Source: Patescibacteria group bacterium (GTDB lineage Bacteria; Patescibacteriota; UBA1384; XYA2-FULL-43-10; 1-14-0-10-43-13). From it: DNA of 64,000 nt. The stretch is from contig JBAYVE010000002.1 of assembly GCA_041674765.1 (NCBI GenBank), forward strand, positions 113,467-177,466, given 5' to 3'. Position numbers and translations under genes: made by a program. The notes under the pieces were generated by a model, which was not told the origin of the DNA, ran no database searches, and saw only the letters and a list, made by a program, of their open reading frames with translations. Positions 31,202 to 64,000 of this stretch are shown piece by piece (the first letter of the stretch is position 1; every line of letters begins with the position of its first letter).

Positions 31202-31295
31202 TTTTTTGGAATTTCTAGATGCAGATCCCTCGGCAGGTTTTCAACCGCTCGGGACGACAGAGGCGCTGCGATTTCTAAACAAATCCTAATGACCG

Positions 31296-31445
31296 TGATT
31301 CCAAAAACCTTGCTATTACCCTGTTTATTATTGTTCGAGGAGGAACGACGAGAACTTTGGTCATTTGTTAGTATGGTGACAGACTTCTCATTTTTAAGAG
31401 CACCATTCGAAGAATAAATACATTTGATGGGTTTTAGGGAATTAC
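31296..31445 (-). mobile_element. MITE-like 150-bp repeat element, copy A (inverted relative to copies B and C)
   Basis: The reverse complement matches copy B (35687-35838) nearly base-for-base, including gttctcgtcgttcctcctcgaacaata. The ends are tgattccaaaaacc and gggttttagggaat. Confidence 0.6.
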
Positions 31446-35626: not shown

Positions 35627-35686
35627 GGTCTATCGTTCGAACAAGGTGAGAACTAATCTATTTTTACGTGAGAACAAAACAAAACC

Positions 35687-35838
35687 GTCATTCCCTAAAA
35701 CCCTATTAAATGTATTTATTCTTCGAATGGTGCTCTTAAAAATGAGAAGTCTGTCACTGTATTAATAAATGACCATAGTTCTCGTCGTTCCTCCTCGAAC
35801 AATAAGAAACAGGGAAATAGCAAGGTTTTTGGAATCAC
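35687..35838 (+). mobile_element. MITE-like 150-bp repeat element, copy B
   Basis: Begins immediately after the dus stop. The termini are cgtcattccctaaaacc and ggtttttggaatca. It shares an internal core with copies A and C. Confidence 0.6.
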
Positions 35839-54116: not shown

Positions 54117-54129
54117 AGTCCTATGACCA

Positions 54130-54279
54130 TGATTCCGAAAACCCTAATAAACGTATTTATTCTTTAAATGGTGCTCTTAAAAATGAGAACTTCTGTCACT
54201 GTACTAATAAGTGACAGAAGTTCTCGTCGTTCCTCCTCGAACAATAAGAAACAGGGAAAGGGTAAGGTTTTCGGAATCA
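54130..54279 (+). mobile_element. MITE-like 150-bp repeat element, copy C (perfect 14-bp TIRs)
   Basis: Begins 14 bp after the giant-gene stop. The 5' TIR is tgattccgaaaacc and the 3' TIR is ggttttcggaatca. There is an internal perfect hairpin (CTTCTGTCACtgtactaataaGTGACAGAAG). Confidence 0.65.
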
Positions 54280-54564
54280 CGTTTGATGATTATTGACAGC
54301 TTACTTAAATTATGATAAATTAATAGAGTCCAAAGACCACTAGCCTTCGCTAAAACTACAGCCGGCAAACCAGCCCGGATAGCGATAGAAGTCTTGTGCA
54401 GGAATTCCGTTAGTATAGAGTAAATATTATTGATATATGTCTATCAGCATTCTGCTGCCATCATATACAATAAATTTTATACTTTCTTGATTTCTGCGCT
54501 AGTCGCAGATTTTTTTAAATAGAGTCACAAAAAAGTAACGAAATTTACGAAAGTAAAGGAATTC

Positions 54565-55842: not shown

Positions 55843-55871
55843 ATTGAGAAGACCAATTAAAAATTTACAAA

Positions 55872-57206
55872 ATGTCTTTTAAATTAATCAAAAAATTAGA
55901 TAACGGTACCCGAATCGGGGAACTGGCGACGCCTCATGGTAAGATTGAGACGCCCTTTTTCATGCCGGTTGGAACTGTCGGCAGCGTGAAATCGGTTTCG
56001 CCGAATGAATTAAAAGAGCTAGGTTCAGAGATCATACTTAGTAATACTTATCATTTGTACTTGCGACCAGGGGAGAAACTGATCAAGGATTTTGGCGGAC
56101 TCCACAAATTTATGAGATGGGATCGGCCAATCCTTACAGACTCTGGGGGATACCAAGTTTTTTCTTTGGCAAGAGGGGACAACCATAATAAGAATGTCAT
56201 TTATGGTTCTGTCATTCCCGCGGAGGCGGGAATCCAGAAGACCAAGGAATTGGATCCCCGGGTCACCGTTCGACCCCGAGCGACTCACGGTCGAGGGGAG
56301 CCCGAGGATGACACCATTATTAGGGACAGCAAAAGGGGTCTTGTCAAAATTACCGAGGAAGGTGTGGAATTTAAATCATTTCTCGATGGCAGCAAACATT
56401 TTTTCACTCCTGAGAAAGTTATCCAAATTCAGCTTGATCTGGGCGTCGATATTCTGATGCCGCTAGATGTTTGTCCGAGCGGCAAAGCAACTCGAAAAGA
56501 AGTGGAAGAATCGGTTCGATTAACTATTTTATGGGCAAAAAGAGCAAAAGAATATTTTGATTGCAAGATACAAGAAACAAGAGACAATAATCAAAAAAAT
56601 AACAATACAACAATAAAACAATATGACAATCGACCTCTTCTTCATGGTATCGTTCAGGGTGGTTTATATGAAGATTTAAGAAGAGAGTGCGCCAAAGAAC
56701 TTATCAAATTGGACTTCGATGGCTATTCGGTCGGCGGATTGGCTGTTGATCATGAAACAAGGGATATGTGGGAGACGGTAAAACTGATGGGGGAGATATT
56801 GCCTCAGGATAAACAAAGGTATCTGATGGGTGTCGGTACACCGGATGATATTATAAAAGCTACAGAATTAGGCATGGATATGTTTGATTGTGTCTTGCCG
56901 ACACGTTTGGCGAGACACGGAAATGTGTATGTCAGAGCAGAAAGCCAAAAACAAAAAGCTAAAAATATTAACCTATATGAACTCATTAACCTCCTCAAAT
57001 CCGAATATCGAACCGATAGGGGAGTGATAGATGAAAATTGTGGCTGTGAAGCTTGCCAGAAGGGAACGGGTTTCTCAAAGGCCTACATTTCCCATCTAAT
57101 TCGTTCAAATGAGATTTTAGGGCTCAGACTTGCGACGTTGCACAATCTCTATCAATATCTGGAGCTTATGAGAGAACTCGGTTGGAGAGTGGAACGGGGA
57201 AAGTAG
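55872..57206 (+). CDS. tgt: queuine tRNA-ribosyltransferase carrying an in-frame repeat-element insertion
   Basis: Conserved Tgt blocks are present (FMPVGTVGSVK, PILTDSGGYQVFSL, YLMGVGTPDD, CxCxxC zinc site). An extra ~45-aa segment (…NVIYGSVIPAEAGIQKTKELDPRVTVRPRATHGRGEPEDDTII…) is encoded by a GTCATCC-type element. Confidence 0.85.
   Translation: MSFKLIKKLDNGTRIGELATPHGKIETPFFMPVGTVGSVKSVSPNELKELGSEIILSNTYHLYLRPGEKLIKDFGGLHKFMRWDRPILTDSGGYQVFSLARGDNHNKNVIYGSVIPAEAGIQKTKELDPRVTVRPRATHGRGEPEDDTIIRDSKRGLVKITEEGVEFKSFLDGSKHFFTPEKVIQIQLDLGVDILMPLDVCPSGKATRKEVEESVRLTILWAKRAKEYFDCKIQETRDNNQKNNNTTIKQYDNRPLLHGIVQGGLYEDLRRECAKELIKLDFDGYSVGGLAVDHETRDMWETVKLMGEILPQDKQRYLMGVGTPDDIIKATELGMDMFDCVLPTRLARHGNVYVRAESQKQKAKNINLYELINLLKSEYRTDRGVIDENCGCEACQKGTGFSKAYISHLIRSNEILGLRLATLHNLYQYLELMRELGWRVERGK
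56211..56316. repeat. GTCATCC-type palindromic element inserted in-frame inside tgt
   Basis: gtcattcccgcggaggcgggaatcc…ggaattggatccccgggtcacc…gggagcccgaggatgacacc. It includes an 8-bp perfect hairpin (ATTCCCGCggagGCGGGAAT). Confidence 0.6.
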
Positions 57207-58766: not shown

Positions 58767-59059
58767 TGGCTAATTTCGATTATACAAGACTAGAGCAGCT
58801 GCAAGATGCAGGGGATTGGGCCGGCGCCAAGGCGATGATCAAAGGTTTCTTTGAAACTGAAGTAACCGCGGGGGATATCGGCGAGGTTTATGCTCGTCTC
58901 TCAATTGCTTATATCAGGGTTAGTAATGAGATCAATCAAAAGTATTCTCAGTTTTTGGCGGCCACTCTGGATGCGCTAAAAAAGGTGGATCAGGCAAAAA
59001 ATGAGAACGATAAGCAGATTGATATTGAGGCAGTCAGGAATCAAATCGCGGGATTGTAA
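58766..59059 (+). CDS. small hypothetical protein, translationally coupled to upstream gene
   Basis: AGGAGG RBS. The taATGg start overlaps the upstream stop. Length is 97 aa. Confidence 0.5.
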   Translation: MANFDYTRLEQLQDAGDWAGAKAMIKGFFETEVTAGDIGEVYARLSIAYIRVSNEINQKYSQFLAATLDALKKVDQAKNENDKQIDIEAVRNQIAGL

Positions 59060-59086
59060 TATTTGAAACAGGTGTCGAAACGAGAT

Positions 59087-59116
59087 AGCGCCGGGATAAG
59101 TTCGGCGCTTTTTTTG
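59087..59116 (+). terminator. Rho-independent terminator
   Basis: AGCGCCGggataagttCGGCGCTTTTTTTG. Confidence 0.7.
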
Positions 59117-59135
59117 TATGACGGAACCAAAACTC

Positions 59136-59163
59136 TTGACAAAAAATATAATTCTGATACAAT
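59136..59163 (+). promoter_or_regulatory. near-consensus promoter P1 (TTGACA-N16-TACAAT)
   Basis: ctcttgacaaaaaatataattctgatacaat. It shares the CTCTTGACAAAAA -35 context with P2. Confidence 0.55.
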
Positions 59164-59169
59164 GATCAG

Positions 59170-59530
59170 TTCTGAGGGTATGGTTCGACTTAGCTCGCCA
59201 TGAAGGAGTGCGGAAGTCCTCAGGAGGTAAATACATCTTTTAAAAAACAGATTACAGATAATACGGATATACAGAATATTCGTAAATTCATATCCATTCG
59301 TAATCTTCGTTTAGTACTTGCGTCAATGTGCTGGTAGTCAATCCATTTAATTGGAAATGTAGGTTCCCCCTCCGCCTGCATGATTATCAGCACAGTGCTG
59401 CAAGTCATATTACACCAATCTGATATTCTTCGACTCCGCGGTAATTCGAGGGTGGAGAAGTTCTCCACCTACTACGTAGAGTCGAACAATAGATATGTCA
59501 GAACGGCAGACGAGTTATTGATAAAGGGGC
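59170..59530 (+). ncRNA. candidate small RNA 1 (C-rich loop hairpin at 59357-59381)
   Basis: Lies downstream of P1. The hairpin is ATGTAGG-ttccccctccg-CCTGCAT. No RBS-led ORF is convincing. The 3' end is undefined. Confidence 0.3.
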
Positions 59531-59539
59531 GTATTCCTC

Positions 59540-59568
59540 TTGACAAAAACAAAGCAGTGTGATATAAT
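59540..59568 (+). promoter_or_regulatory. consensus promoter P2 (TTGACA-N17-TATAAT)
   Basis: ctcttgacaaaaacaaagcagtgtgatataat. Confidence 0.6.
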
Positions 59569-59574
59569 ATAAAG

Positions 59575-59790
59575 TGTTGGTTGATAGACCAGCAGTAAAA
59601 GATTACTTGATCATAAGATTGGCAGGTGGGAATGAGGGATCGGATGCCGATATAATGAATCGAAGAAATTGCAGGCGGCAGCGTCCTGCATAGCTCACAC
59701 CATCGCAAGATGGACAATGGGTTCCCCCTCCGCCCATTGAAGAGTTATGTAGGACATTGTTGCCTGTTTTTTAAAGCAAAACGGCATCAA
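59575..59790 (+). ncRNA. candidate small RNA 2 (C-rich loop hairpin at 59715-59739)
   Basis: The hairpin is CAATGGG-ttccccctccg-CCCATTG, with an 11-nt loop identical to that of sRNA 1. It is followed by a T-tract (tgcctgtttttt). Confidence 0.3.
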
Positions 59791-59930
59791 AACAGATTAC
59801 GGATTATTTAAGTATACAAATTTTGGATATTTAAGTAATCCTTTGAACTTTGACAATAGAATATTTATCCGGAGCAAGAAATTTTCATACATTGTTCGGC
59901 AATATTTGCATGCGAGATTCCCGCCTTCGC

Positions 59931-60063
59931 GGGAATGACAAAGAAATAGGGGAATGACAGAAAGTCTGGGGAATGACAAAGAAAACAGGAGAATGACAAA
60001 AAAAGGGGGAATATCAGAGAAATATGGGAATAATAGAGAAATAAGGGAATAGTAGATAGACAG
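59931..60063. repeat. iteron-like array: seven ~19-bp direct repeats of GGGAATGACAAAGAAA decaying 5'->3'
   Basis: gggaatgacaaagaaatag / gggaatgacagaaagtctg / gggaatgacaaagaaaacag / gagaatgacaaaaaaag / ggggaatatcagagaaatat / gggaataatagagaaataa / gggaatagtag. It is preceded by the hairpin ATTCCCGCcttcGCGGGAAT and lies 105 bp upstream of the 60169 gene. Confidence 0.6.
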
Positions 60064-60168
60064 AGAAGTTGGCAAACTATTGAAAATTTCTTTGCTCCGT
60101 ATAAAGCAGAGTCCGTCGATGCAATCCTGCTAGACGGTTGACACATATATCCTGAGGAGGATACGACG

Positions 60169-61017
60169 ATGAGGTTTTTATTCCTCTTAGTGTTGGCCGT
60201 CGCATTATTGTCGACGACGGCAGCGTGGGCAAGTGGCTCAACCATGCCCGCGCCGGACAAAAAAGGTGCCCCGTCGGCTTCGCTGAAAAAAGACGGAAGT
60301 ACCTATGAATTCCACTTCCATTTCGATGGCAGTGGAAATCGGCGTACTACCCGCCGTCAGCATTCGCAGCCCTCTGTGTCTCCTGCAACCACCCGGTCGC
60401 AGGAAGACAGCCAGAACAAAAACATCTCCCGTTTGGACAGCAATCAGCAGGAGATGGGGGCAGCGATCAATCAGCTCGCTGCCAATGACACCTCACAGAA
60501 TCAGGCGATTGCAGCTGGCCAGCAAAAAGACCAGCAGCAAGACAATCAAATCCAGGCGAATGAAAAAAAATTGGAGGAGAACATTATGCCGATGTGGGCA
60601 ATAATCTTAGGCCTTGTACTGCTGTTCTTGTTAGTTGCTGGCACGATCACATTCATGTGGATCCGTGCATCCATCGCTGGTAAGGCAGCAGCTGCGGCAA
60701 CACCGCCGCCGACTACTCCTGGCGATCCACCCCTGAACCCTCCGTTGCTCCCTGTCGATCTTAACCTCGACGGGATCAAGGAGGTCAACCCCGACGAAGT
60801 CATCAAAGCGAATTTCGCTTTGGATTACCGAAATGATAGGCTTCGAGGGGTTCGATTGAGCCTACGTCCGGGATCTGCGCCGGCTGAGTCCGCCTCGGAC
60901 CGCAGCGGAGGTGGAAATGTTATTAACAATAGCATTTTCCTGAATGGCGCGAAATCCCTCGGAGATGCTCTTCGGGGCGACGCGCCGGAGCCCGAGGCCC
61001 CTCCGCAAACATCTTAA
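60169..61017 (+). CDS. signal-peptide + mid-protein TM hypothetical protein, Gln-rich, Pro-rich linker (GC-rich island 2)
   Basis: GGAGG RBS. The signal peptide is MRFLFLLVLAVALLSTTAAWA. The internal TM is WAIILGLVLLFLLVAGTITFMWI. Confidence 0.55.
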   Translation: MRFLFLLVLAVALLSTTAAWASGSTMPAPDKKGAPSASLKKDGSTYEFHFHFDGSGNRRTTRRQHSQPSVSPATTRSQEDSQNKNISRLDSNQQEMGAAINQLAANDTSQNQAIAAGQQKDQQQDNQIQANEKKLEENIMPMWAIILGLVLLFLLVAGTITFMWIRASIAGKAAAAATPPPTTPGDPPLNPPLLPVDLNLDGIKEVNPDEVIKANFALDYRNDRLRGVRLSLRPGSAPAESASDRSGGGNVINNSIFLNGAKSLGDALRGDAPEPEAPPQTS

Positions 61018-61162: not shown

Positions 61163-64000
61163 CTAAGCGTGGCCGTGTCTTGCTTCCATATCTTTCTTCC
61201 ATTTCTCGAAATTCCCAGTTAGAAAAGAATACTTTTGCGCCGTCAAATTCTTCTGAAATTCCCCAACAGAGATCGGTTTGAGCGGCGCTGAGGTGAAAAT
61301 AATTTTTCCTTTTTGATCTAGTCCGAAGGGAGTGGTAGTAATTTTGCCGTCACTGATATTATCTACCTTCAGGAATTCCATTGTGCCGTCGGTTAGCTCC
61401 CGTATGAAAACCTGTTCCGGCTTAACTTCGAGTTCCGAAGCTGCCTCAATGTTGCCTTCTGGAGTCAACCTCGGCACGCTGATCTTTGGGGCGGCTTGTG
61501 GTTCTTTCTCTTTCTTAAACTCAGTGACGATGGCATAAAAATCATTGAACTTTGCGTTCTTACTTTTGCCTGCTTTTATGAGCGCATCGATAATCTCAGG
61601 GAGAGATCTGGAATCCTCTTTTAGTAGAGTAGCGCTAATCTTTTTCTTGTCTTTATCTTGCAAGGCAGCCAGATAGGGATCCAGCAAAGCGATTCGGTCT
61701 CCATCGGACATAATCTGATCGCCGAAAAAATAATCGGTATTCTTCTTTTGTTTCGAAAAGATTTCCTCAACTTCGCCGACTTTCGGTATTTGCAGGACAA
61801 GGGCTTTGTCATCGTTATGACGGTAGGCGAAAAATTTGCCTTCTTGTGTCGTCACTATCAGAGTAAGGGAGATATCCGCCCCGGCAACTCTAGCACAGAG
61901 ATCGGAGAGTTTTTTTGTATTTTTATCGGCGGCTGCATCAGACTGCTCAAGATCATCGGCAATTCCAGCATAGGCGCTACCCAATTCTGCGGCTGCTTTT
62001 TTCAAATCTGCGATTTTCTTTTCACTTTTATCCGGAGAAGAGATAGAAACAACTAATTGCTGTCCGTTCGGTAGTCGGCCAAACGTAAATGTTTCCCGAA
62101 GGGCCTTTTCTTTTTGGTCAGGGTTGGCTTCATGTTGTCCGGCTGTTTCATAATTACCGACTCGGCCTGACTGTTTTTCGAGGAGTTTGCCGCCCTCGGT
62201 TTTCTGCATACCTTCGGGCACGTTTTCCGCTGGTTCTTGTACGGGCGTAGGGCCTTCGCTACCGCTTTCGCCGGATCCGAAGCTTGATGGTCCTCGCCCA
62301 GATGGTGCGGCTCCAGCACCGGTACTAGCGGTTCCTCTTCTTTCCTCTTCTTTTTTCTTGGCAAATTTTTCATTTCGGATAACCATAATGAACCGGGAAT
62401 CGGCGCGTACCAAGTCTATCAGGGGTACTCTTTGAACAGGGTTGAATTCCTTGGCCTCATTAACAACTTGCATATCAACACAACTTCTCTCGGGATGATC
62501 CAGATCAATCTCATCGGTACGAATAACTTTCATAATTTGGTTAGCTGAATTATCTCCATTTTCGCTTAAATCCTGAAGATAATATTGACCGGGGAGAGGC
62601 AGACGGTTGTTCCTCGCCATTTCTAGAAGTTGATCACGAACGTCGCCTTCGGGCAGCAGACGGCGGCGCTTCATCTCCTGATTGTGGATAAATTCTGTTC
62701 TGGTATCAGCATCTCTCTGGTGACGGCCGTCATTGAAAAATTTACCGATAAAGAATCTGCCGACGGTTGCTGCCATTACTCCCGCAAGCTGGATACCGAC
62801 TCGTTTGACTGCTTCGCGGTAAAAAGCTTCTTTGCCCAGCTGCCCCAAAGCAATTGCTCCCTCATAAAGCAGATGCCCGCCATGTTCGGCGATACCTTTA
62901 AAACCATCCAATGCGGCTGCCCCGACATCGCCGATTCTCTCGGCTGCCAGGCGCTCACCAACACTTTTATATAGATAGTAAGCCTGATCTTGAATTTGCT
63001 TGACGGGATGAGAAACGCCATCGCGGTCAATATCGATGCCTTTGACAGTTTCTCCGCTATTGTATGCATTCGTCATATTGTCATAGGCTTTGCCGGTCAG
63101 ATGACCCCAGCCGCCGTTTAGAAGAGTTACTGCCGTTACTGCCATGCTGCCGATCATATCGCCCCATTCCGAACGGTTTTCCCAGTTGTGACGCTCTGAC
63201 TCTAACTTATTGCGAAGCTCTGCCATTGTTGTTGAATCGGGCGAAACGTAACTAGGTTGATACATCTCTGTCCCGTCGCGTTTTTCCGGATTGTTATCGC
63301 TGTGCTCTAGGTCTATATATGGATCAATATCGGCTTCTTTGCCAAAAAGTTTACCGAGGAATCCCTTTGTCTTCTTGTTTGGAGTACCGTCATCGTTTTC
63401 CTCTTCGCCCTGTTGGTATTGAATGTCGACTGAGAGATGTTCGAAGCTGTTTTGAAAATTGACGCGATCGATAACTGCTTGATTATGCCGAAGTTCCCAA
63501 GTCTCTCGTGTGATCGGTTCGTCGGTGAATGGATCGGTCGGATCTGTTTCATCAAATTTCTGGTAGGCAATTTCTCGTTCATTTAACTTATTTAGTTTTT
63601 TGAAGTATCGAAGCGTGGCAGCAATTTCTTGTTGTTTTAAGTGCCGTTCCTGGCTACTGAAATGTCTGGTGAGTTCGACGGATCCACGTCCGATTGCACT
63701 GCCCAAGACTGTTCGGCCAACCATATCAGCAACTGCCGCTGAGCCCACCTCCGCGCCCAAAAGCCAATTCATGGCCATAGCAACGCCGGCCGTAATTGCG
63801 CCTTTTAAGACTATCTTTTCAGCAAAGTTAATAGTCTCCCGAAGGGCGGCGTGACCCCTTCTGTATTCAACCGAACCGGTCCGTTTGTTTATCCGAAAAT
63901 CGCTACCTTGTAGATCAATATCTACTATTTTTTTATTTTCATCCCGCTTGATTTCCCAATGTCCATCGCCCGAGAGATATGACTGAGCCCGTCCCCAAAA
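61163..64000 (-). CDS. large (>945 aa) hypothetical protein, 5'-partial (continues past window end); N-terminal glycine-zipper-like hydrophobic region
   Basis: The frame is open from 64000 down to the stop at 61163. The track called only 871 aa from the internal Met at 63778. There is an upstream GxxxG-rich segment (GAITAGVAMAMNWLLGAEVGSAAVADMVGRTVLGSAIGRG). Composition is GC-rich. Confidence 0.6.
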   Translation of the reverse strand, partial: FWGRAQSYLSGDGHWEIKRDENKKIVDIDLQGSDFRINKRTGSVEYRRGHAALRETINFAEKIVLKGAITAGVAMAMNWLLGAEVGSAAVADMVGRTVLGSAIGRGSVELTRHFSSQERHLKQQEIAATLRYFKKLNKLNEREIAYQKFDETDPTDPFTDEPITRETWELRHNQAVIDRVNFQNSFEHLSVDIQYQQGEEENDDGTPNKKTKGFLGKLFGKEADIDPYIDLEHSDNNPEKRDGTEMYQPSYVSPDSTTMAELRNKLESERHNWENRSEWGDMIGSMAVTAVTLLNGGWGHLTGKAYDNMTNAYNSGETVKGIDIDRDGVSHPVKQIQDQAYYLYKSVGERLAAERIGDVGAAALDGFKGIAEHGGHLLYEGAIALGQLGKEAFYREAVKRVGIQLAGVMAATVGRFFIGKFFNDGRHQRDADTRTEFIHNQEMKRRRLLPEGDVRDQLLEMARNNRLPLPGQYYLQDLSENGDNSANQIMKVIRTDEIDLDHPERSCVDMQVVNEAKEFNPVQRVPLIDLVRADSRFIMVIRNEKFAKKKEEERRGTASTGAGAAPSGRGPSSFGSGESGSEGPTPVQEPAENVPEGMQKTEGGKLLEKQSGRVGNYETAGQHEANPDQKEKALRETFTFGRLPNGQQLVVSISSPDKSEKKIADLKKAAAELGSAYAGIADDLEQSDAAADKNTKKLSDLCARVAGADISLTLIVTTQEGKFFAYRHNDDKALVLQIPKVGEVEEIFSKQKKNTDYFFGDQIMSDGDRIALLDPYLAALQDKDKKKISATLLKEDSRSLPEIIDALIKAGKSKNAKFNDFYAIVTEFKKEKEPQAAPKISVPRLTPEGNIEAASELEVKPEQVFIRELTDGTMEFLKVDNISDGKITTTPFGLDQKGKIIFTSAPLKPISVGEFQKNLTAQKYSFLTGNFEKWKKDMEARHGHA

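Follow-up and report, generated by a model that had tools for sequence, protein, structure and literature searches.

Two tandem units on the + strand of a Patescibacteria contig (JBAYVE010000002.1) almost certainly are conserved genes for structured small RNAs (sRNAs), as judged from their sequence and that of related loci. They occupy the region 59087-59790 of the 64,000-nucleotide (nt) stretch that was analyzed, which is called the window throughout. It is well supported that the two units are tandem genes for sibling small non-coding RNAs of one Patescibacteria lineage and that they belong downstream of rplJ-rplL-tgt. Support independent of the window comes from 35 other distinct copies and from the synteny downstream of tgt. 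Apparently, this small-RNA family of one Patescibacteria lineage has not been described before.

Promoters, fold and conservation of the two RNA units

Both units are preceded by a promoter close to the consensus (Table 1). Promoter P1 of unit 1 consists of the -35 hexamer TTGACA (59136-59141), a 16-nt spacer, the dinucleotide TG (59155-59156) and the -10 hexamer TACAAT (59158-59163). In promoter P2 of unit 2 the hexamers TTGACA (59540-59545) and TATAAT (59563-59568) are separated by a 17-nt spacer, and TG is again present. The two promoters are the sole matches to the pattern TTGACA-N(12-15)-TGNTAYAAT within the window (0.00 expected). The original prediction, which was made from the sequence alone, had claimed two promoters with a shared -35 context and a TAYAAT -10 element, and both are indeed found, with extended -10 elements in each case. 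Two exact repeats occur in both units, the 13-mer CTCTTGACAAAAA and the 15-mer GGTTCCCCCTCCGCC, the latter at 59362 and 59720. The distance from the predicted transcription start to the hairpin is approximately 188 nt in unit 1 and 140 nt in unit 2, in agreement with the predicted 140-190 nt. The hairpin stems differ between the copies as had been stated (ATGTAGG/CCTGCAT in unit 1, CAATGGG/CCCATTG in unit 2) and are present in both sequence and fold. The identity of the loops likewise holds and is part of the exact shared 15-mer; however, given a U-G closing pair, the loop effectively comprises 9 nt (UCCCCCUCC) and not 11 nt.

The hairpin with the conserved loop had been regarded as the functional unit. 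This hairpin exists, but it forms only one arm (P3) of a three-way junction of 90-105 nt, the Y domain, which is joined to a variable 5' extension. The Y domain is built from an outer stem of approximately 22 bp (helix P1), a short variable hairpin (helix P2) with UUUA, UUCG or GCAA loops among the copies, and the P3 hairpin of 7-8 bp. In unit 1 helix P1 pairs 59316-59339 with 59382-59405, P2 extends over 59342-59355 and P3 over 59357-59381, and no U-run follows P1. The corresponding arms of unit 2 are 59671-59696 with 59742-59767 (P1), 59700-59713 (P2, GCAA loop) and 59715-59739 (P3). The predicted full transcripts fold far better than shuffled sequences (z = -3.7 and -7.2), the region 59575-59775 of unit 2 reaching -81.9 kcal/mol (z = -7.2). 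The original prediction had described the two modules as duplicated. They are two separately promoted tandem units but constitute distinct subtypes, type A (unit 1) and type B (unit 2); an origin of the units as duplicates of each other was rejected, there being no alignment beyond the promoter 13-mer and the 15-mer. The consensus promoters and the Rho-independent terminator point to independent transcription units, whereby unit 1 appears to share the unit 2 terminator. No U-run is present in type A where a type-B promoter follows. Therefore, unit 1 transcripts probably read through to the terminator of unit 2.

Homologous loci were fetched through the Tgt protein from ten close relatives (50-67% Tgt identity) and were thus unselected for the RNA. 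All eight of these tgt-anchored relatives that possess more than approximately 100 nt of sequence after tgt (loci L003 and L005-L011) contain the same loop in one or two hairpins, located on the tgt strand 0.1-4 kb downstream of tgt, with stems that are different yet complementary. A covariance model (R1) was built from 13 copies; the scores of the two window copies (78.2 and 86.3 bits) are high by construction, since both were seed members. One metagenome scan by a loop-plus-P1 pattern, evaluated with R1, yielded 23 further loci with full-length matches of 72-94 bits, the other 22 pattern matches being at chance level. In 19 of these 23 loci tgt is located upstream, usually together with rplJ and rplL, while the remaining four offer at most 1.4 kb of upstream sequence. 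No match to R1 was obtained in 70 unrelated bacterial tgt loci (approximately 1.1 Mb).

A near-consensus TTGACA-N17-TGnTAYAAT promoter is found 17-184 nt upstream of the Y domain of almost every copy. Helix P1 is directly followed by a U-rich tail in 27 of 38 copies and consequently doubles as an intrinsic terminator. The arrangement of the copies varies from a single gene to two separately promoted genes (the window, L005, L007, L008, L010, L103 and L124) or two Y domains in one transcript (L104, L091, L094 and L099). Ahead of the next gene, the last copy is usually closed by a terminator, in many cases with a second hairpin behind it. The genes downstream of the RNA locus fall into several unrelated clusters, and its neighbors encode orphan secreted or coiled-coil proteins.

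Covariation was analyzed at two depths. For 13 copies RNAalifold revealed compensatory changes at 22 of 29 pairs. Among the 37 distinct copies 95.7% of the cells form standard pairs, compared with 26-47% in slid controls, double substitutions occur at 23 of 29 pairs, and none of 500 shuffles matched any observed measure; as a caveat, these 37-copy counts derive from a model-fitted alignment. G-U pairs outnumber A-C pairs by 155 to 12, a 13:1 excess on the + strand, and reverse-strand model scores are 50-60 bits lower. Thus, the folded molecule is the + strand RNA and not DNA. Every reading frame is interrupted across the loop in at least one homologue, the stop-to-stop distances having medians of 25-41 amino acids (aa) and minima of 6-15 aa, and the length of the Y domain varies from 60 to 109 nt through insertions and deletions in P2.

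These data bear on two alternatives. That the units encode small proteins, for example in open reading frames (ORFs) of 31-45 aa crossing the hairpins, is hardly conceivable. ORFs on either strand of the window do span the two hairpins in one frame (FPLR on + and AEGEP on -), but every frame is closed in some homologue, the stems show paired substitutions, the P2 indels alter the domain length, and an arrangement of Shine-Dalgarno (SD) sequence plus start codon is absent from the window sequence. An element acting at the DNA level, such as a recombination site, an attC-like folded site, an iteron or replication-terminus element or a mobile repeat, is extremely improbable. Such an element would be in keeping with the imperfect palindromic architecture, with the adjoining tandem array and with the nearby GC-skew sign change at approximately 60-61 kb. 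However, the G-U excess makes sense only for a + strand RNA, the units are framed by promoters and U-runs, only two copies occur in 64 kb, and their site is fixed and syntenic in all relatives. No integrase or transposase was found nearby, and at the skew change there is a two-gene block whose orientation is opposite to that in the other loci. The claim of non-coding RNA genes rather than a protein is strongly supported by the covariation, by the lack of a conserved small ORF, by the promoters ahead of almost every copy, by the retention of the loop in homologues and by the lack of an assigned Rfam family.

The comparison with Rfam that had been proposed for the locus indeed assigned no family. 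Rfam 15 at the gathering threshold gave no match in the whole window, the E-value mode (E up to 10) for 58900-60250 returned noise with E ≥0.5, and nothing credible was obtained in 12 homologous loci with E up to 1. The sub-threshold noise reached at most about half of the gathering score and belonged to FtrB, SraG, skipping-rope, miRNA and snoRNA models. ARAGORN detected no tRNA gene and no transfer-messenger RNA (tmRNA) gene. In text searches of the literature, directed at the loop sequence and at sRNAs of the candidate phyla radiation (CPR), no description of the family or of regulatory sRNAs in Patescibacteria/CPR was retrieved.

The C-rich loop and its possible partners

The nearly invariant loop has the sequence (U/C)(U/C)CCCCCUCC, of which CCCCCUCC is kept in all 37 distinct copies. 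In the metagenome set this invariance is in part a product of the search, since the 15-mer belonged to the scan pattern; less biased evidence is provided by the tgt-anchored set and by second copies that were found by the model only. In 35 predicted full-length transcripts the opening energy of the loop is at most 0.02 kcal/mol in a pseudoknot-free model. The loop contains CCUCC, the anti-SD core of the 16S rRNA 3' end. It thus seems to present a conserved, accessible seed, whose conservation is in part a matter of ascertainment. Roughly half of the copies have CGUAGG/CCUGCG as their P3 stem, including a U-G wobble, a sequence that presumably resembles the stem of helix 45 of Escherichia coli 16S rRNA and was taken as a lead only. 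Intramolecular pairing was considered as well, the loop being matched against the G-rich 5' hairpin and the GGAGG sequence that follows this hairpin. A required pseudoknot of this kind was rejected because at most 5 bp are possible and the 5' extension is absent in several homologues.

We propose that the exposed C-rich loop may be the working surface of the RNA. It would base-pair with G-rich, extended SD-like stretches (GGAGG, GGAGGGG, GGGGGAA) in mRNA leaders. As with the C-rich motifs of Firmicutes sRNAs, the outcome would be hindered access of ribosomes or a changed stability of the mRNA. Judged from the sequences, this is the most economical mechanism, and we give it about an even chance. 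The best predicted partners in the window are the SD regions of genes 41040, 44622, 11454 and 7423. Among them, the leader of 41040 contains the site CGGAGGGGauAUG with a predicted pairing energy of -17.6 kcal/mol, 44622 encodes a surface protein of 3164 aa and 11454 a PilT-like ATPase. A perfect GGAGG occurs in only 8 of 41 window genes. Next after the RNA locus comes a gene for a signal-peptide protein. According to our own count it carries GGAGG(G) in approximately 15 of 20 loci, and its leader in the window contains seven units (GGGAAU, GGGGAAU or GGGGGAAU) with complementarity to the loop in its 5' half. The genes for a DUF5663-like protein and for a protein of approximately 1000 aa were rejected as targets; two relatives have CGGAGGGG SD sequences there, the window organism does not.

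Several observations weigh against the pairing of the loop with mRNAs. Besides the invariance imposed by the search pattern in the metagenome set, loop-complementary 8-mers show no enrichment in the window, candidate sites among the relatives precede different genes, and the leaders of tgt and rplJ exhibit no complementarity to the loop. Furthermore, the 8-9 nt loop is unchanged even between species that share only 53-70% identity in Tgt. Such constancy is more typical of one fixed partner, a protein or rRNA, than of evolving mRNAs. The transcripts with two Y domains in several relatives resemble sponge or decoy RNAs. Taken together, loop constancy and two-domain transcripts fit a fixed partner at least as well as mRNA pairing, and for this reason pairing is placed no higher than even and a sequestering role of the RNAs is retained as a possible, clearly less probable alternative. 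In such a role the RNAs would be decoys or scaffolds, their C-rich loop serving as binding site for a protein or a ribosomal component, for instance a KH-type poly-C binder or a factor that recognizes the CCUCC 3' end of 16S rRNA. They would titrate or deliver this partner as CsrB/RsmZ do for CsrA. The invariance of the loop amid co-variation of everything else fits this explanation, as do the two Y domains per transcript in four relatives, the two genes at many loci and the very strong promoters. A search for a conserved mRNA target in the window (about 64 kb) and the related loci (roughly 20 kb each) found none, and the presumed likeness of the P3 stem to helix 45 is a further lead. However, no candidate partner gene linked to the locus was found, and a strict helix 45 mimic is unlikely since the P3 stem sequence varies freely. 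A bolder, rather improbable reading is that the RNAs represent an abundant, lineage-specific mimic of the 16S rRNA 3' end, with a helix 45-like stem presenting CCUCC, and act globally. They would then soak up strong SD leaders or titrate a factor that binds the 16S 3' end. If this were true, a reduced CPR genome that is poor in regulators would possess one RNA-based means of throttling translation or the maturation of ribosomes.

A role in cis, either as 3' untranslated region and terminator of tgt or as a long leader controlling the downstream signal-peptide gene, is very unlikely. The elements keep a fixed position, with tgt on one side and, on the downstream side, a gene that in many loci is of one kind; helix P1 with its U-run works as a terminator, and the GGGAAU and GGGGGAAU repeats of the downstream leader in the window are complementary to the loop in its 5' half. 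Against this, almost every copy possesses its own consensus promoter downstream of tgt, and two inserted genes and a terminator part tgt from the RNAs in the window. The terminator of the last copy usually precedes the next gene, and the downstream genes belong to several unrelated clusters. Helix P1 has a very high stability (-41 to -69 kcal/mol for the Y domain), with no sign of an alternative fold. A riboswitch or cis-leader is likewise at odds with the unrelated downstream genes, with the single stable P1 and with the lack of an Rfam riboswitch match.

Pairing of the loop with SD-like mRNA sequences and its sequestering role can be approached experimentally, because a single invariant loop is concerned. 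Patescibacteria/CPR are uncultivated episymbionts with genomes of approximately 1 Mb and few recognizable regulators. To our knowledge, regulatory RNAs have hardly been charted in CPR bacteria. The family described here is a concrete, testable candidate that combines syntenic and structurally supported siblings, the strongest promoters of the region and an exposed motif of 8-9 nt. An entry in an RNA family database could improve the annotation of metagenome-assembled genomes, and the family could serve as lineage marker and for follow-up in metatranscriptomes. Should the loop indeed act on SD sequences or the ribosome itself, the family would illustrate how translation is tuned in a minimal bacterium.

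Features and surroundings of the locus

The features of the locus are listed in Table 1. The terminator claimed for its 5' boundary is present, with a G+C-rich stem and a T-run.

Table 1: Features of the RNA locus, with positions in the window and minimum free energy (MFE) values of predicted folds.
Feature	Position	Strand	Description
Intrinsic terminator that ends the upstream 97-aa ORF and delimits the RNA locus on its 5' side	59087-59116	+	9-bp stem with 6 GC pairs, then TTTTTTT
Promoter P1, unit 1	59136-59163	+	11/12 consensus positions, extended -10
5' hairpin, type-A RNA	59169-59225	+	Begins at predicted transcription start, GUUCUGAGGGU...CCUCAGGAGG; closing stem in MFE fold
A/U-rich linker, unit 1	59226-59315	+	GAUUAC-like short repeats; length and sequence vary among homologues
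Y domain, unit 1 (type A)	59316-59405	+	MFE -40.9 kcal/mol; covariance-model score 78.2 bits (seed member); family covariation
P3 apical loop, unit 1	59365-59373	+	UCCCCCUCC; opening energy 0.0 kcal/mol
Promoter P2, unit 2	59540-59568	+	12/12 consensus positions plus TG
5' extension, unit 2 (type B)	59575-59670	+	Three predicted hairpins, one presenting AAUGAGGGAU
Y domain, unit 2 (type B)	59671-59767	+	MFE -56.8 kcal/mol; covariance-model score 86.3 bits (seed member)
P3 apical loop, unit 2	59723-59731	+	UCCCCCUCC; shared 15-mer, open in fold
U-run right after helix P1 of unit 2	59767-59772	+	TTTTTT; forms intrinsic terminator with P1

The motif GUUCUGAGGG is located directly 3' of the promoter in 24 upstream segments from the 37 distinct copies, a few of these segments sharing one promoter (co-transcribed tandems). 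Covariation of the type-A 5' hairpin is weak (3 of 9 pairs). In the 5' extension of other type-B copies a GAGGGA motif was seen at a similar place, as judged by reading. The 5' strand of helix P1 of unit 2 is almost identical to that of L010. Short A/U-rich repeats build the linkers and flanks in the window (59244-59310 and 59789-59818), in L005 (14830-14900) and in the linkers of L125, L114 and L107; in some loci their spacing is roughly heptameric by eye (GAUUACR, AAUUUCU, RAUUNAG). A 30-nt stretch (AAAACAGATTAC.GAT.AT....TATACA) follows the 5' hairpin of unit 1 and recurs downstream of the unit 2 terminator. At 59424-59491, between unit 1 and promoter P2, a 13-nt inverted repeat (TATTCTTCGACTC/GAGTCGAACAATA) surrounds a GGUGGAGAAGUUCUCCACC hairpin. 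The sub-threshold skipping-rope match at 59441-59518 overlies this repeat and reached 17 bits versus a gathering score of 36.7.

The locus had been placed in a GC-richer island next to an iteron-like array. The island is not real, the GC content being 0.36-0.46 in the region versus 0.41-0.58 in the flanks. The array does exist as a tandem repeat of a 19-nt unit (GGGAATGACAAAGAAATAG, 6.3 copies, 59931-60050), but it looks like an expanded insert in the conserved 5' leader of gene 60169 and not like replication iterons. It is enclosed by 22-nt inverted repeats (59864-59885 and 60084-60105) that form a long-range stem, and its units carry GGGAAU or GGGGGAAU, both with complementarity to the sRNA loop in its 5' half. 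A similar GAGCAA...UUGCUC long-range stem was seen by eye ahead of the signal-peptide gene in many related loci. The palindrome ATTCCCGC-N4-GCGGGAAT occurs twice, at 59917-59936 and at 56214-56233 inside the tgt ORF, where it is translated in frame within an insertion (..VIPAEAGIQ..). Weak FtrB-like Rfam matches cover the palindrome at 59917-59936 and a site inside the tgt region of L107. The palindrome looks like a small repeat element that is tolerated inside a conserved enzyme.

The gene content of the window is typical of a Patescibacteria (CPR) chromosome and comprises type IV pilus ATPases, aminoacyl-tRNA synthetases and topoisomerase I; the ribosomal proteins L1, L10 and L7/L12 are also encoded, followed by tgt. 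Two inserted genes and the terminator stand between tgt and the RNA units. The upstream 97-aa protein was rejected as a synteny anchor. It is an orphan with a self-match only, and the contigs encoding it are useless for comparison because they come from the same organism at 100% identity. Most loci lack a recognizable SD sequence at tgt (window 55845-55874; starts in L003-L127). In L003 and L117 a TATAAT sequence lies approximately 8 nt before the tgt ATG, and therefore the tgt mRNA may be leaderless in these two loci. The GC-skew sign change at approximately 60-61 kb coincides with a minus-strand block of two genes (61163-64000; 12398-15949 in L001) for a DUF5663-like protein of 130 aa and a protein of approximately 1050 aa. 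Since their homologues in related loci lie on the tgt strand, the skew change suggests a local inversion and not a replication terminus. A repeat of approximately 150 nt is present in three intergenic copies in the window that are 85-88% identical (54126-54280, 35684-35838 and, inverted, 31294-31442).

Comparison with known RNAs

Housekeeping RNAs were among the known RNAs with which the two units were compared. Rfam and ARAGORN were negative at the locus, and Rfam also in the 12 homologous loci, for 5S rRNA, signal recognition particle (SRP)/4.5S RNA, 6S RNA, tmRNA and RNase P. This agrees with the original statement that the locus could not be matched by eye to RNase P, SRP, tmRNA or 6S RNA. 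Loop C of 5S rRNA presumably resembles the motif (UUCCC-N3-CCG), but an identity with 5S rRNA was rejected, for the order of the arms and the length of P1 differ and no Rfam 5S match exists. SRP/4.5S RNA was rejected in view of a helix P1 without the conserved internal loops and GNRA apex and of the missing Rfam match. A hammerhead-type junction was discarded because there is almost no unpaired conserved core. A phage origin was rejected as well; a scan of viral contigs gave one chance 17-mer without surrounding structure.

Closer parallels are found among regulatory sRNAs. RsaE/RoxS and the staphylococcal 'UCCC-motif' sRNAs of Firmicutes act in trans, and their unpaired C-rich motifs pair with G-rich SD regions. 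Like them, the RNAs described here possess their own promoter and terminator and expose a conserved C-run, in this case with CCUCC. They differ in lacking homology of sequence or structure (no Rfam match with E up to 10), in presenting one C-rich loop on a three-way junction instead of two or three C-rich stretches and in belonging to another phylum. The streptococcal csRNAs (ccnA-E), which depend on CiaR, are siblings of approximately 100 nt, some of them in tandem, with strong promoters and SD-complementary sequence. The tandem type-A and type-B siblings resemble this arrangement. However, the anti-SD sequence of the csRNAs is located in a single-stranded spacer between hairpins and covers the AUG, whereas here it is a hairpin loop in a Y fold, and no Rfam match to csRNAs was obtained.

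In RepG of Helicobacter pylori a conserved C/U-rich hairpin loop is the seed against a G-rich leader. Comparable to its target, the leader of the neighboring gene in the window contains GGGAAU and GGGGGAAU repeats. In contrast, the RepG loop belongs to the terminator hairpin and its target is a variable G-repeat, while the loop described here is on an internal arm. RepG-like pairing with the neighboring leader is conceivable as a possibility only, for it involves at most 7 nt and is not conserved in other loci. With CsrB/RsmZ the RNAs have in common an invariant loop motif that is repeated, so that duplication or multimerization raises the valency; some relatives carry two Y domains. They differ in that the loop is C-rich rather than GGA and in that only one or two units are present per transcript. 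Judged by its sequence features, the RNA probably works most like the C-rich-motif sRNAs, the csRNAs or RepG, yet it belongs to none of these families.

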